Source: an uncultured Candidatus Saccharibacteria bacterium
GTDB taxonomy: Bacteria > Patescibacteriota > Saccharimonadia > Saccharimonadales > Saccharimonadaceae
Assembly (NCBI GenBank): GCA_963515045.1
Contig: CAUPWH010000001.1
Location: forward strand, 127,118-191,117
DNA length: 64,000 nucleotides
Reading direction: 5' to 3'
Shown here: in pieces, positions 31,971 to 37,196 of the stretch
How positions within the stretch are numbered: position 1 is the stretch's first letter
Layout of the letters: each line of letters begins with the position of its first letter
Program-made: the position numbers and the translations under genes
The notes under the pieces: model-generated
Told to the model about the DNA's origin: nothing
Seen by the model: only the letters and a program-made list of their open reading frames with translations
Databases searched by the model: none

Positions 31971-32690
31971 TCACACCCCCGGCACCGTCCAATACTCCTG
32001 AACAATGGCTTGGACTTGCGATGGTTGGGTTGTTAAGGCTTGTTCCCAGGTCATGCCGGTGTCTTTTTGGAAAGAGGACATAGCTTGGATTAGGCTTTCG
32101 ATTTGAGTGTGAGTAATGGTACTGCCTGCGGCGGATTTGAAGGTTTCGATTTTATAGTTGTCGCCGCTGTACCATGAGCTAATTGTAATAGCATCTATAG
32201 AGCCAGGCATACGGACACGTAGGTCATTATTTACACGCTCAAAAACCACGCCGATCGATTCGTGTCCCAGACGAATCTCGTCGGCTTTACCGTTCACGTC
32301 ACAAACCGTATCTTCCCCATCTCCCTTGTTGAAGATGTAGACGTCGTCACCTTCGCCGCCTTTGAGATAGTCTTTGCCTTGACCGCCGATGAGGGTATCG
32401 TTGCCGGCTTTGCCTTCGAGAGTGTCGTTGCCGGCGTCGCCGTAGAGGAGATCGTTACTGGCTGCTCCAATAAGAGTATCATTACCGTCACCCGCAGTAA
32501 TAACATTATCTCTGTCTACAACCCCGTTAATACTATCACCCGCATCAGTACCTGTCATAGTCGTAAGTGGAGCAGTATCAATAATTCTCTGATATTTAAT
32601 CGACTTTTTAGCAAAATGTTCGCGTAAATGAGTAAATTCTGTATCTGAAACAAGTCCGCGACCGCGCAGCGCTCGCGTTACTTCTGCCAA
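31971..32690 (-). CDS. hemolysin-type calcium-binding (RTX) repeat protein, probably the C-terminal remnant of a larger gene
   Basis: GGxGxD nonapeptide repeats (GDGNDTLIG, GDAGNDTLEG, GKAGNDTLIG, GGQGKDYLKG, GGEGDDVYIF). These are followed by an HCBP_related-like segment (ITISSWYSGDNYKIETFKSAAG). The ORF opens only 7 codons upstream of a TTG, with no ATG. Confidence 0.6.
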   Translation of the reverse strand: MAEVTRALRGRGLVSDTEFTHLREHFAKKSIKYQRIIDTAPLTTMTGTDAGDSINGVVDRDNVITAGDGNDTLIGAASNDLLYGDAGNDTLEGKAGNDTLIGGQGKDYLKGGEGDDVYIFNKGDGEDTVCDVNGKADEIRLGHESIGVVFERVNNDLRVRMPGSIDAITISSWYSGDNYKIETFKSAAGSTITHTQIESLIQAMSSFQKDTGMTWEQALTTQPSQVQAIVQEYWTVPGV

Positions 32691-32740: not shown

Positions 32741-33305
32741 ATACTCTCCAGAAATACCGTATATAAGCCTCCTAAAATCGGCGCTTTAGTGGCAGTTGGT
32801 GAGCTAACCAATATAAATGTGGAACTCCTTTTTCGCGATTTGTTTGTACTGCGAGATCGCTTCAAGGAGCTTGGTATGGTTATCAAAAATGGCGAGGTGT
32901 ATTTGCCGGATTTGGAGGAGCGCGGACTTACGAATAGCCCGAAAAAGCGTTATTATCGAAAGCCCGTTTCTCAGAACTGCCCGAGCTGAAAGATTCATCC
33001 CGATATTTCATCGGCTCAAAAAGCGTGGCGTGGCAATATTACTTAACACCAAACCGCTTGAAGAATACGACGAAATATACAAATTGCAAGTCCAAAAATC
33101 TCTAAGTTCACTACAGTCTGCGGGTGTCGACGTTCTTTTTACAGTCAAACATCACCGTAAATTAGCCATCATCGACAGAAAAATTATTTACGACGCGGTC
33201 GGATTCCTGAAATTCATGCAGCGGTTTGCGTACGTCGCTAGCAAGAATGAGGAGTTTGATTTTGAGGGGTTTTTGGAGAAATATAAAAAATCTTCGGACT
33301 CTTAA
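32741..33305 (+). pseudogene. PLD-family (Nuc-like, HxKx4D) nuclease, frameshifted near 32.92 kb and lacking an ATG
   Basis: Frame A (32741-32989) reads ...FKELGMVIKNGEVYLPDLEE. Frame B continues LRIARKSVIIESPFL...FHRLKKRGVAILLN...SAGVDVLFTVKHHRKLAIID (HRKLAIID fits HxKx4D). Layout resembles small Nuc-type PLD nucleases. No clear GSxN follows. Confidence 0.45.
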
Positions 33306-33318
33306 TACTCAATGATGT

Positions 33319-34992
33319 CTAGCTAGAGAGTAGGTTTTTAATTTTTGACTTAATGTTAGTATATATTACCGATAGTCTGTCTTTGGCATCTTGTGTAAGC
33401 CTTGATGTATGCATTAGTGCATTACGAATTGGCATAAAGGCCTTTTCATCACATATGCCACTGTCTTCTGCATAATTATTTTGCGATAAGTAAGCTAAGT
33501 AGGTCAACCGCTCCAAATCTAGATAGAATAAATCGTCGTTATCTTGACGTATATCTATAGATAGATTACTCTTGTTCTTCCTCTTTATTTCCATTTCTCG
33601 GTAACGCTTGATTTGCTTCCTCGCTATACAATCAGGATCTGTGTTATCATCAATAGTTATGGATTGATATCTTATTAACTTTCGAGTGAGGTTTTCTAAT
33701 ATGAAGCATTCCGTATACGATTGAAGGTTAAAAGTAGCATCCTCTTCAAGCTCATTTATCCATTTTTTTATTCTTTTAATAGGCTCTGAATTATCGGGTA
33801 AATCTGGCTTATATTCGTTTACAGTCTCGTTGTATAATTTCTTTGATGCACGCTCCTTCTGTGAAAAACGCGGGTTATCATTATCTCCATCTTGCTTGAT
33901 TTCAATACGCCACTTATCCCATTGGTCAATTATAGATTTAACAACCGGCTTTATATCTTCAAGCAACTCAAGAAATAGCGCATCGTCAGACACTATTCCT
34001 TCACGACTACTAGTAAATCTATCAATCTCGTCTCCGTCAAGATCGTTATAGTGGATTTGTCCGTACATATAACTTTCTGGTATTCTCGCGCTTTGAATAT
34101 GCTTTAGTATATCCCGCTCGCGAAGCCGACCGTTAACGAACAAGTCTACTCCAACTTTTTCTCCGGTTCCTAGTATATTTAGGTCTTTTGGTTTTTTGAC
34201 CGAGGCTATGAAGCCACTAATGTTCTTGTTGAACCTGACACTCTCTGTACGAGAGGCTAATGTTGAAAGGGTATAGATAAGTGAATCCTGACTTTTATTA
34301 ATTGGCCACAAAAATTGAGTCCTATCGGTTAAATCTTTTATGTCGTCTAGATTTATTTCATTACCATCAACGTAAATCTTGAAACTTTCATCAACGAGAG
34401 AGAAGCGAAAATATAGTGCAATAGCTTTTCGTATATTCTCTAATGTATTGACTATACCGCCCTTAAGATTAACGAACTTGATAATAGTCCCTTGTTCCAT
34501 TCCGCCAAGCAACTTTATATCTTCACTAGAAAGCGCTCCTAGCTTGTATGATTCGTGATCTCTGTCATCTTGTATAGCCTCATCTAGCTCGCTGTTGTCT
34601 ATCACTCCACCGGTGACTGGCTCACCAGCTTTCTTCGTCACTATAACGACGCGGTTAGCGCACGAAAGGAGGGCTAGTTTTCCAATTCCTTTTCTACCTA
34701 TATACGGACGACCTTTTCGTGAGTTTGACCCATTTGTCCGTTTTGAGTAGCCAATCCTTAAAAACTTGCCACTAAAATCAGATACGGACATACCGTCGCC
34801 ATCATCAATAACGAGCATTTCTGATTTTTCTCTATTTATGATAATTTTGACATTATCAGCATCTGCATCCCAAGAATTAGATATAGCCTCACCTAGTATG
34901 GTTATAAAATTTCTATAAAGATTTCTACCGAGACTGTTTAGTACTGCTAGAGATATATTGAAAGTAAATTGACTATCTTTTTCGTCGTTCAT
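33319..34992 (-). CDS. GHKL (HATPase_c_3-type) ATPase with a C-terminal HEPN-like Rx4H motif
   Basis: Bergerat-fold motifs: LGEAISNSWDADA (N box), IDDGDGMS (DxGxG), GRKGIGKLALLS (G2). The C-terminal ~150 aa end in FMPIRNALMHTSRL (R-x4-H) about 40 aa from the end. 4-nt ATGA overlap with the upstream methyltransferase. Confidence 0.7.
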   Translation of the reverse strand: MNDEKDSQFTFNISLAVLNSLGRNLYRNFITILGEAISNSWDADADNVKIIINREKSEMLVIDDGDGMSVSDFSGKFLRIGYSKRTNGSNSRKGRPYIGRKGIGKLALLSCANRVVIVTKKAGEPVTGGVIDNSELDEAIQDDRDHESYKLGALSSEDIKLLGGMEQGTIIKFVNLKGGIVNTLENIRKAIALYFRFSLVDESFKIYVDGNEINLDDIKDLTDRTQFLWPINKSQDSLIYTLSTLASRTESVRFNKNISGFIASVKKPKDLNILGTGEKVGVDLFVNGRLRERDILKHIQSARIPESYMYGQIHYNDLDGDEIDRFTSSREGIVSDDALFLELLEDIKPVVKSIIDQWDKWRIEIKQDGDNDNPRFSQKERASKKLYNETVNEYKPDLPDNSEPIKRIKKWINELEEDATFNLQSYTECFILENLTRKLIRYQSITIDDNTDPDCIARKQIKRYREMEIKRKNKSNLSIDIRQDNDDLFYLDLERLTYLAYLSQNNYAEDSGICDEKAFMPIRNALMHTSRLTQDAKDRLSVIYTNIKSKIKNLLSS

Positions 34993-36044
34993 AATTTTAT
35001 ATTCTCCAAATGCTCATTAATAGACATGCCAATAATTTTTCCTAAATCAACCGGTACAGCGTTACCTATGTGCCTGCTAATTGTGCCGATTGAAACATTG
35101 TTGACGTCTTCAAAGAATTTATAATCTCTTGGGAAGGTCTGGAGTAGCGCACCCTCTCTGAGAGATATTGCTCTATCTTGCTCAGGATGACCATAACGAC
35201 CAGTACCGAATGAATAAAATTGCGTTGTAACAGTCGGCGAAGGTTTGTCCCACTCCATGCGACCATACACGCTGCCGAATGATTTGCCGGACGGCTTTTT
35301 GTAGCACTCTGGCAATAGTGATTCATCCCAGTCTCGCCACGTGCCGCCTGGCTTTGATTGTTTAATTCTCTTGAGATTTATCTCGGTTAATCCAGCACTT
35401 CTATGAAGAGGGTCGCTTTCGTCAATTTGTCCTTGAGATATCACAGGCAATCCCGATAATACGTCTCTGACGGTAAGTTTTTTCTCTATGGAGGTTTCTG
35501 GAATTAGTTGAATATCACCGTGTTTTGATGCCAATAAAACAAGTCGACGACGCTTTTGCGGTAGTCCGTATTTGCTACAGTCAACTATTTTGTAGCTTGT
35601 GTGATAACCTAATTCATCTAGTTTACCCAGAAAATCTTCGAATATGTCGTACTTATGAAGTTCTGGAACATTTTCCATAGATACAATGTCTGGTTTTATA
35701 TCTTCAATATACTGAGCAAACGACCTTAATAAATTCCAGCGGACGTCCGTCTTGGTGTCTATACTTTTACGGTATTTGTTGGCGTGACGCGAAAATCTTT
35801 GACAGGGTGCACAGCCGACTAGAACCTTAATATCGGCTTCTCCAAACATATTATCTACGTCTGAGCTTGGTAACTTTGATACATCCGCTTCAATAAATTT
35901 TGTATGATTGTTTTCTTCGTAGGCGTATCGGCATGTTGCATCATTATCTATGCCAGCAACGACGTCTAAGCCAGCTTTTTTCAGGCCGCAAGTCAACCCA
36001 CCTACGCCGCAAAACAGGTCTACGACGGCAACGTTATTATTCAT
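34989..36044 (-). CDS. dcm: DNA (cytosine-5)-methyltransferase
   Basis: All hallmark motifs are present: I DLFCGVGG, IV GCAPCQRFS, VI ENV, VIII QKRRR, IX REGALLQTFP, X GNAVPV. Confidence 0.9.
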   Translation of the reverse strand: MNNNVAVVDLFCGVGGLTCGLKKAGLDVVAGIDNDATCRYAYEENNHTKFIEADVSKLPSSDVDNMFGEADIKVLVGCAPCQRFSRHANKYRKSIDTKTDVRWNLLRSFAQYIEDIKPDIVSMENVPELHKYDIFEDFLGKLDELGYHTSYKIVDCSKYGLPQKRRRLVLLASKHGDIQLIPETSIEKKLTVRDVLSGLPVISQGQIDESDPLHRSAGLTEINLKRIKQSKPGGTWRDWDESLLPECYKKPSGKSFGSVYGRMEWDKPSPTVTTQFYSFGTGRYGHPEQDRAISLREGALLQTFPRDYKFFEDVNNVSIGTISRHIGNAVPVDLGKIIGMSINEHLENIKL

Positions 36045-36080
36045 GTCTATAGTATAGCAACATATACCACTTGCGCCTAG

Positions 36081-36889
36081 CTAAAGTCTCAGAATCAACT
36101 CCGCCTTAATCTGCGACTTTTTCTTCAGCTGCTTTTTGGTTTTGGCGGCTTCTCTTGACGAAGCCCTGATAGAACTTTTTCGCGCAGAAAACTCTTCTCG
36201 TTTCCTAGCAAATTCCTTTCGTGAATGTTTAACGATTTCATCTCGTACTGTTTCGTCGCCTTCATTTTCAGGCAATAAAGTCTGTCCGGATAGTGGGACT
36301 TGCACATGAACTGCCGCCAGCCAGGCGTAGTAATTATACACAGGCAGGTTACTGATTTCACCCGGCTCAATGTATGGGCTAAACATTGGTAGCAAACGTT
36401 GTTCATCCTGCGGATTGCCGGTTTGAAAACAGATGGTTAGCTAGAGTTATGTCGACCGTCTGCTGATCGCTTTGCTGTGAAGTAGACTGCTCTGCCACGA
36501 TCACGAAAACTTTATATTTACGACTTTCAGATAGCATTTGCACAAATGAGGTTGTGGCGAAATTTTGGAACTCATTGACGTAAATATAGAACGCGCTGTT
36601 GCAATCGGGCGCACCGCAGACTTGCGAGCTGAAGCTTCGTAAGTACAGTAATGCCAAATAACTCAGAAGTATCTTCACCGAGCAATCTTTTCGATAAATT
36701 ACAGATCGGGATTTTGCCCGAGTTGATAATATCATCAAAATCAACGGTAGACTTCAATTGTTCAAGGATCTGTTTAGCTGAAGCCGAAAACAAGAATCGA
36801 CCAATTTTAGCAGTGATACCGGCTGCCATTTTTACTTTCTGCATATCGCCAGCTTTGCCAAATTCATTTTTCCAAAAGTTGCCAAACAA
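36081..36889 (-). pseudogene. T4SS coupling protein (TraG/TraD/VirD4-like) C-terminal remnant, in at least 3 frames
   Basis: Three consecutive minus-strand ORF pieces in different frames. They read ...SGKIPICNLSKRLLGEDTSELFGITVLTKLQLASL.. / ..FYIYVNEFQNFATTSFVQMLSESRKYKVFVIVAEQSTSQ.. / ..GEISNLPVYNYYAWL... This is the (D/N)EFQNF...SE.RKY signature. The N-terminal Walker A part is missing. Confidence 0.55.
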
Positions 36890-37121: not shown

Positions 37122-37196
37122 TGGTGACCTTACCGGGAATCGAACCCGGGTTGCCAGGATGAGAACCTGGTGTCCTAACCGCTAGACGATAAGGCC
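37122..37196 (-). tRNA. tRNA-Glu (anticodon CTC), CCA encoded
   Basis: The reverse complement GGCCTTATCGTCTAGCGGTTAGGACACCAGGTTCTCATCCTGGCAACCCGGGTTCGATTCCCGGTAAGGTCACCA folds as a cloverleaf. The anticodon loop is TTCTCAT. Confidence 0.9.

Follow-up and report, generated by a model that had tools for sequence, protein, structure and literature searches.

GHKL-type restriction enzymes in REBASE were catalogued in 2008, with BbrUII/HgiDII listed as a family of Type II restriction endonucleases (REases), R.HgiDII described as a GHKL domain followed by an unassigned C-terminal domain, and one enzyme, R.NmeAIP, carrying a Hypoth_Ymh (HEPN) C-terminus (Orlowski & Bujnicki, PMC2441816). Fusions of paraMORC to Ymh HEPN domains in restriction-modification (R-M) neighbourhoods were taken up in 2013 in a computational study, which proposed a mechanism, predicted an RNA-targeting effector for these proteins and suggested PrrC and RloC as a functional analogy for paraMORC-HEPN proteins (Anantharaman et al., PMC3710099). 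Proteins that combine GHKL with DUF4263, formerly known as paraMORC3, are now grouped as a type of Shedu that has been shown to act against phages (PMC12137116). Here, we describe a two-gene cassette from a 64,000-nucleotide (nt) stretch of DNA of an uncultured Candidatus Saccharibacteria bacterium (the window; assembly GCA_963515045.1, contig CAUPWH010000001.1, positions 127,118 to 191,117 of the forward strand), in which the gene of a Dcm-type C5 cytosine DNA methyltransferase is followed by that of a 557-amino-acid (aa) protein with an N-terminal GHKL ATPase module and a helical C-terminal domain bearing HEPN motifs. In our estimate the evidence is evenly poised on whether the pair is an R-M-type cassette in which an ATP-driven sensor of unmethylated DNA acts through a HEPN-like RNase effector.

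The original prediction for this locus, made from the sequence alone, had taken the architecture to be uncharacterised, which does not hold, since the N-terminal residues match a named restriction-enzyme family and since papers of 2008 and 2013 had already catalogued and interpreted, respectively, GHKL-HEPN fusions in R-M operons. The GHKL chassis is that of a named restriction-enzyme lineage, and the cassette is a variant of an architecture predicted between 2008 and 2013. What is new, as judged by profile comparison, is the C-terminal domain: a family without a Pfam model above threshold and not detectably Ymh, which replaces the nuclease of the HgiDII/BbrUII chassis and is obligately linked to a methylase, with no other conserved nuclease.

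Kinship with BbrUII/HgiDII-type systems

The cassette consists of two minus-strand open reading frames (ORFs; Table 1), and the junction of the methylase and ATPase genes is a 4-nt stop/start overlap (...AAA TTA TGA / ATG AAC GAC); tight or overlapping junctions are also found in loci L026 and L092. A complete Dcm-type methylase and a second ORF of 557 aa overlapping it by ATGA had been predicted, and both are exactly as claimed. The methylase scores 135.8 bits against the TIGR00675 dcm model (cutoff 100.65), and its translation contains motifs I (DLFCGVGG), IV (PCQ), VI (ENV), VIII (QKRRR), IX (RE..LQTFP) and X (GNAVPV). Over its full length it is 48-54% identical to methylases paired with true BbrUII/HgiDII-family enzymes, on par with the identity of about 48-50% that it shows to methylases of its own family, and on this comparison it is of the M.HgiDII-partner type. 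DISARM and Druantia were considered and rejected for the methylase: the DrmMII and DruM matches represent generic similarity among 5-methylcytosine (m5C) methylases, and no other genes of either system are present.

The N-terminal part of the 557-aa protein carries GHKL motifs I (E35-x3-N39-x2-D42), II (D63-x-G65-x-G67), III (G99-x2-G102-x-G104) and IV (G168-T169). Conservation was assessed throughout in 79 homologues, 38 close and 41 divergent, reaching down to 32% identity. E35, N39, D42 and D63 are invariant among them, while G65/G67, G99/G102/G104 and T169 are kept in 38/38 close and 39-40/41 divergent sequences, which bears out the GHKL ATPase that had been recognized from the sequence. 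An AlphaFold2 (AF2) model of the full protein (pLDDT 81.8, pTM 0.76) aligns in Foldseek over ~410 columns to the ATPase modules of Hsp90/TRAP1, MORC2 and SMCHD1 (E ~1e-11); matches of the full model are dominated by the GHKL module, and the length of the alignment indicates that the region in common comprises the ATPase and the middle domain, the latter being assigned from the alignment of the whole module. The protein also matches MutL models weakly, and a PADLOC MzaB match (E=4e-4) reflects only the GHKL fold in common, so that membership of MZA was rejected. A search returned 4767 homologues at E<=0.001; 120 of these were listed, and those of full length among them measure ~550 aa.

The NCBIfam model NF050001, ‘BbrUII/HgiDII family restriction enzyme’, is 659 positions long, and its positions 1-368 align with residues 9-369 at an E-value of 8.3e-86; the score, 288.9 bits against a family cutoff of 550, leaves the protein outside the equivalog. 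All 41 divergent members (41/41) likewise match the N-terminal part of NF050001 only and stay below the cutoff, as opposed to true members, which reach 751-801 bits over positions 1-659. Further matches are to PADLOC REase_II models (~1e-40) and to phrog_6203; from the former it follows that the pair would most likely be reported as a Type II R-M system by standard tools, and databases and defence-finding tools most likely file the whole family of the 557-aa protein as Type II restriction enzymes on account of its N-terminal ATPase alone.

Four true NF050001 members were fetched, three of them from plasmids (of Halobaculum, Deinococcus and Rhizobium) and the fourth from a P2-like E. coli phage. 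This family has a GHKL and middle module homologous to ours (30-33% identity over ~365 residues), and the two share an upstream M.HgiDII-type methylase (48-54% identical), Vsr as a frequent companion and the form of a compact mobile cassette. They differ at the C-terminus, where the true members have a ~290-residue PD-(D/E)xK domain (SduA_C/DUF4263-like) with a D...ExK nuclease signature (GRVDI...EHxIIELKR; one with a weak SduA_C match, 5.4e-4), which is replaced here by a ~180-residue helical domain with HEPN motifs. Neither a PD-(D/E)xK (Shedu SduA_C-like) domain nor a D...ExK motif is found in the 557-aa protein, and its membership of Shedu is ruled out, as it has no DUF4263/SduA_C domain. 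The BbrUII/HgiDII-family architecture itself, GHKL followed by a Shedu-type nuclease, resembles VcSduA.

The second point of comparison is the paraMORC-Ymh proteins, which share with the 557-aa protein an N-terminal GHKL domain and a C-terminal helical domain with R-N-x3-H. In a Neisseria gonorrhoeae locus (L083, 3465-5144, NZ_CP119142.1), a GHKL fragment that also matches NF050001 is followed by a separate Hypoth_Ymh ORF (2.9e-25). The domain described here differs in being longer, with a helical insert, and in having no match to the Ymh profile; moreover, Ymh occurs alone and with other partners (PMC3710099), whereas the present domain is confined to the GHKL family among the matches listed. 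A methylase beside the Neisseria GHKL-Ymh copy was not found with the methylase query used. This NmeAI-type gene is split into a 297-aa GHKL ORF and a 198-aa Ymh ORF and is probably a pseudogene in that strain; its source record, a 2.17-Mb chromosome, is filed in a plasmid collection.

The NF050001 chassis thus occurs with a D...ExK, a Ymh or a HEPN-like C-terminus, that is, with three interchangeable effector domains on one chassis, and these sequence relationships are most simply read as the outcome of at least two exchanges of the effector domain within a single ancestral type of cassette, made up of Dcm and a GHKL effector and in some cases Vsr. With a Shedu-type DNase, a Ymh HEPN and a HEPN-like domain on one ATPase chassis and methylase type, nature offers a domain-swap series that should be useful for studying how the sensing of DNA by a GHKL clamp leads to activation of the nuclease.

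In the P2-like Escherichia phage PhiR44_1 (L088, 2998-6046), a full-length BbrUII/HgiDII-family GHKL nuclease, annotated ParaMORC3, adjoins a Dcm gene near portal and replication genes, and phages therefore carry the HgiDII-type cassette too. On plasmid p96k of Deinococcus sp. AJ005 (L085, 6789-7080), an HgiDII-type cassette (ATPase, convergent Dcm, Vsr) adjoins the DISARM gene drmC, a neighbour that places this cassette in a defence-island context.

The C-terminal domain

HEPN domains are defined by an Rx4-6H motif with a polar N, D or H after the arginine, and have as a second signature a conserved acidic residue in helix 2, typically within Ex3[KR] (Anantharaman et al. 2013). The 557-aa protein's C-terminal domain contains both, as R-[N/D]-x3-H at R523 to H528 and as E433-x3-R437 in the predicted helix 403-442. 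The first lies within the IRNALMH that had been pointed out near the C-terminus, whereas the second had been missed. Both R523 and H528 are kept in 79/79 homologues, the residue following the arginine being N or D always, and E433, N434 and R437 are kept in 79/79 as well. At 32-49% identity, the invariant residues of the domain are only Y426, E433, N434, R437, R523 and H528, and among these there is no metal-binding acidic cluster and no PD-(D/E)xK, HNH, GIY-YIG or phospholipase D (PLD, HxK) signature. An R-x4-H motif alone would not be significant, as at least one is found in 24% of shuffles of the 557-aa protein, and another, at residue 293, lacks conservation (R in 7/41); the motif at R523 is significant because it is conserved.

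The AF2 models place the two motifs in a HEPN-like layout. The helix with Ex3R (403-442) is followed by helices 454-474 and 487-502, which form an insert, and then by helix 511-527; R523 lies at the end of this helix, H528 is the first loop residue, and the last helix spans residues 534-556. On grounds of motifs and modelled topology, we consider it probable that the C-terminal domain is a HEPN domain.

Profile searches assigned the domain to no described family. For the window domain itself, a Pfam scan gave no match even at E<=10, and neither this domain nor 20 relatives matched the Ymh profile (PF09509/TIGR02391) at E<=10. When PDB sequences were searched with the C-terminal profile (hmmsearch), the matches were no more than noise (DEPTOR, a small heat-shock protein). 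The one recurrent non-GHKL Pfam match is HEPN_Swt1 (PF18731), obtained for 1/20 and 3/41 relatives with a best E-value of 6.8e-4; in individual scans, the ten most divergent members gave no HEPN match and the second ten gave the HEPN_Swt1 matches. The two that were inspected both span Rx4H and end at the same profile position, so that the likeness to Swt1-like HEPN domains consists of weak, recurrent matches with Rx4H and the following helix in consistent register, and the difference is that they fall below the gathering threshold, come from 3/41 members and do not include the window protein. We count these matches weakly in favour of a HEPN assignment.

An exhaustive search of the C-terminal profile against 1.84 billion representatives found 253 clusters, and the full-length matches among the best 150 of them are all GHKL-family proteins of 547-608 aa with the domain at the C-terminus. 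The domain therefore appears, by profile comparison, to be private to the GHKL family of the 557-aa protein and to have no current Pfam model.

Methylase linkage and possible modes of action

Of 185,579 species-representative genomes, at least 385 contain relatives, which range over Saccharibacteria, Bacteroidota, Chloroflexota, Planctomycetota, Pseudomonadota, Acidobacteriota, Omnitrophota and Cloacimonadota and include a Woesearchaeota metagenome-assembled genome (MAG). The close relatives are Candidatus Saccharibacteria, mostly from human oral samples. The adjacency of the two genes is conserved throughout: an orthologous m5C methylase adjoins the ATPase gene in 80/80 fetched loci from many phyla, directly upstream and on the same strand in 78/80 (L064 is divergent and L069 is cut by a contig end). 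This adjacency persists in members that are 31-34% identical, and the identity of the methylases drops in step with that of the ATPases, both to ~50%. Against ~75%-identical Saccharibacteria genomes, nucleotide homology starts and stops only a few bases away from the cassette's ORFs (33318-36060 of the window), limits that mark the pair as a discrete mobile unit; in the closest relatives, homology runs on into the same flanks. The cassette is thus a self-contained, horizontally mobile R-M-type unit. It is common in oral Saccharibacteria and gut Bacteroidales, and with this frequency it probably adds to the DNA-transfer barriers in members of the human microbiome that are hard to manipulate.

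A gene for the Vsr endonuclease lies 3' of the pair in 28/60 distant loci, and in L026 the gene ends overlap; there is no Vsr in the window. No separate nuclease or helicase gene, and no other gene, is conserved near the pair among the 60 distant loci. The presence of Vsr in 28/60 and the lack of a conserved separate nuclease or helicase support methylation acting on DNA. As a side observation, in one divergent lineage (L089, 1101-5827; also L090 and L091) one m5C methylase gene precedes a tandem pair of GHKL/HEPN-like paralogues. Those of L089 are 606 and 608 aa long, 44.5% identical to each other, and both keep ENxxR and RNxxxH, which fits an obligate dimer turned heterodimer; tandem paralogues with intact motifs likewise fit a dimeric function.

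In the model that we favour, the Dcm methylase would mark host DNA at a specific site and thereby protect the host from the 557-aa partner. This partner would be a GHKL clamp that acts as a dimer, is driven by ATP and belongs to the paraMORC3 / HgiDII-BbrUII lineage, in whose HEPN-like branch the C-terminal PD-(D/E)xK DNase has given way to a predicted HEPN-like four-helix domain (Ex3R plus R[N/D]x3H). The GHKL and middle module would sense DNA that lacks the m5C mark of the cassette through ATP-dependent closure on it, and closure would switch on the C-terminal dimer, which would cleave RNA independently of metal. Cells would then stop growing, undergo abortive infection or, on loss of the cassette, be killed, while the invading DNA would not itself be cut directly. 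The sequence data show the gene structure with its translational coupling, the intact motifs of the methylase and of a GHKL ATPase that looks catalytically competent and has a clamp-type middle domain, the homology of N-terminal module and methylase, the domain swap, the strict methylase linkage and the mobility, whereas we infer the HEPN fold, the RNase activity, the gating by methylation state and the dimer activation; universal methylase linkage implies that the activity of the partner must depend on the methylation state of DNA, and the lack of any other conserved nuclease means that the HEPN-like domain would be the sole effector, unlike PrrC, which stands beside a complete R-M system. 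The resemblance to PrrC and RloC lies in the R-M setting and in the joining of an NTPase to a HEPN-type RNase at its C-terminus; these anticodon nucleases differ in having ATPases of the ABC type and in accompanying R-M systems with DNases of their own (PMC3710099), whereas the present loci showed no separate restriction nuclease that is conserved. Should the RNase reading be correct, self-marking of the R-M type can be wired to an RNA-targeting, abortive-type effector within a single protein.

More tentatively, we put forward a stronger form of this model, in which the restriction arm is not a DNase at all. A GHKL clamp would read missing m5C and switch on a previously undescribed HEPN-family RNase, with self and non-self told apart on DNA and killing carried out on RNA, and the whole would form a two-gene, methylation-gated abortive-infection or addiction module that extends across bacterial phyla and to at least one archaeal MAG.

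Several results weigh against an RNase effector. The HEPN fold put forward in the original prediction was not recovered by structure comparison: with the AF2 model of residues 375-557, Foldseek gave nothing significant against the PDB (best E=1.8) and no match with E<1 against BFVD. The matches in both were non-specific helical bundles with E>1, which speak neither for nor against a HEPN fold; the top PDB TM-score, 0.39, belongs to the HEPN protein Csm6 (probability 0.18). None of the Pfam HEPN models reaches its threshold (20.4 bits vs 27.5), and hhalign against the Ymh profile gave a probability of 0.7%, in what is a weak test because the Ymh search yielded only 4 close relatives and the profile is shallow (5 sequences). 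The pairing of E433/R437 with R523/H528 is read from helix assignment in the models. A DNA target is the default expectation, because the restriction enzymes of the sister family (HgiDII, BbrUII) cut DNA, and that an RNase would read the methylation state of DNA is entirely inferred. No experimental study of any GHKL-HEPN protein was found in the literature searched. Of the sensor/effector pair originally proposed, the methylase linkage and the HEPN motifs have stood up, the HEPN fold was not confirmed, and the novelty of the architecture was overstated.

The main rival is a DNA-cutting enzyme, and we judge it unlikely. The 557-aa protein would then be an ordinary Type II (HgiDII-like) restriction enzyme, its C-terminal domain a new sort of DNA endonuclease or recognition domain through which unmethylated target sites in DNA are cut, and its HEPN-like motifs convergent. 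Besides the missing HEPN fold match, this is favoured by the fact that both N-terminal module and partner methylase have homologues in BbrUII/HgiDII, a Type II REase family (PMC2441816), by the PADLOC REase_II matches and by a strict methylase linkage in a compact mobile two-gene unit, which is typical of Type II R-M. The invariant Y, E, N, R, R and H speak against it, as they include none of the metal-binding or DNase signatures named above and, instead, make up the two HEPN motifs, each in the helix expected for it, and published HEPN chemistry is metal-independent and proceeds via the RNA 2'-OH. The depletion of GTCGAC in the window is only mild (6 observed vs 11.7 expected), which also counts against a DNA-cutting enzyme, in a test of palindrome avoidance that 64 kb leaves underpowered and not decisive.

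Two lesser rivals were considered. We regard it as quite improbable that the C-terminal domain is a non-catalytic tail for dimerisation or DNA binding, as in Hsp90 and MutL, and that the protein is a MORC-like ATP-dependent clamp which compacts or silences unmethylated foreign DNA or recruits a host nuclease. The best structural relatives of its first 410 residues (Hsp90/TRAP1, MORC2, SMCHD1) are indeed dimeric clamps, neither Pfam nor Foldseek detected a nuclease fold, and no gene of a partner nuclease is conserved; a structural tail is nevertheless unlikely to keep six invariant polar or aromatic residues and two catalytic-type motifs at 32% identity while the domain around them drifts, and the sister architectures all have nuclease-type effectors in the C-terminal position. 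A module for methylation and repair with no role in defence, in which a MutL-like GHKL protein helps Vsr in very-short-patch repair of T:G mismatches from 5-methylcytosine deamination, is very improbable: the position of Vsr directly 3' of the pair, the weak MutL matches and the fact that MutL stimulates Vsr in E. coli would suit it, whereas the window and more than half of the loci have no Vsr while the ATPase-methylase pair is universal, Vsr is common beside Dcm-type methylases in ordinary R-M systems and is also seen beside HgiDII-type partners, among characterised proteins the nearest relatives act in restriction and Shedu-type defence, and the HEPN-like motifs would be left unexplained.

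Surroundings of the cassette

Table 1. Positions of the cassette, its domains and motifs, and neighbouring features in the window
Feature	Position	Strand	Basis
C5 cytosine DNA methyltransferase, Dcm-type, 351 aa	34989..36044	-	PF00145 E=3.9e-56, profile 2-322/324; motifs I, IV, VI, VIII, IX and X in translation
Second protein of the cassette, 557 aa, stop codon included	33319..34992	-	ORF
ATGA overlap	34989..34992	-	read in sequence; couples methylase gene to ATPase gene
GHKL (Bergerat-fold) ATPase domain, residues 9-180	34453..34968	-	PF13589 HATPase_c_3 E=1.5e-18
Middle (transducer / S5-like) domain, residues 181-370	33883..34452	-	Foldseek and NF050001; boundary 180/181 approximate
All-alpha C-terminal domain, HEPN-like, residues 375-557	33322..33870	-	AF2 pLDDT 84.6, helices only; no Pfam family above threshold
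E433-N-L-T-R437, Ex3[KR] motif (HEPN helix-2 motif)	33682..33696	-	translation ENLTR; predicted helix 403-442
R523-N-A-L-M-H528, R-[N/D]-x3-H (HEPN catalytic motif)	33409..33426	-	translation RNALMH; 30-35 residues from C-terminus
239-aa ORF, TTG start, between pyruvate kinase and cassette	31971-32690	-	RTX calcium-binding nonapeptide repeats PF00353 1.8e-22; haemolysin-type calcium-binding related domain
162-aa PLD-like (PLDc_2) fragment, convergent with ATPase gene	32817..33305	+	PF13091 E=8.1e-7, 29.4 bits, cutoff 27
Three short overlapping ORFs in the gap between cassette and tRNA	36081..36889	-	sub-threshold TraG-D_C match, E=0.0073
tRNA-Glu(CTC)	37122..37196	-	ARAGORN; ~1.1 kb from methylase start

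The cassette differs from its surroundings in base composition, with a GC content of 37.3% in the ATPase gene and 41.8% in the methylase gene vs 46.6% in the window; it had been called much more AT-rich than the chromosome, and the direction of this difference is right while its degree is only moderate. It had also been placed in a decayed island next to a tRNA. The tRNA is there, and the ‘decayed island’ is plausible but weakly documented. The three short ORFs that precede the tRNA are possibly one frameshifted gene, a decayed coupling protein of the TraG/VirD4 type, which hints that the cassette arrived on, or beside, a decayed conjugative or type IV secretion element. On the other side of the cassette, the ORF with RTX repeats may be a truncated gene, and the PLDc_2 fragment may be a remnant of another defence gene. 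The latter ORF has weak PADLOC matches to MkoB/MkoC (the PLD domains of Mokosh), and part of it (32920-33193) is kept beside the cassette in L001-L003 and L017. A scan for promoters and terminators gave matches at chance level only.

Other short palindromes are scarce in the 64-kb window. GGCC is strongly rare, with 122 observed vs 304 expected under a Markov model (ratio 0.40), and GGATCC, GAGCTC and TTTAAA are also low, a pattern suggesting that other R-M systems, for example HaeIII-like ones, exert or once exerted pressure in the lineage.

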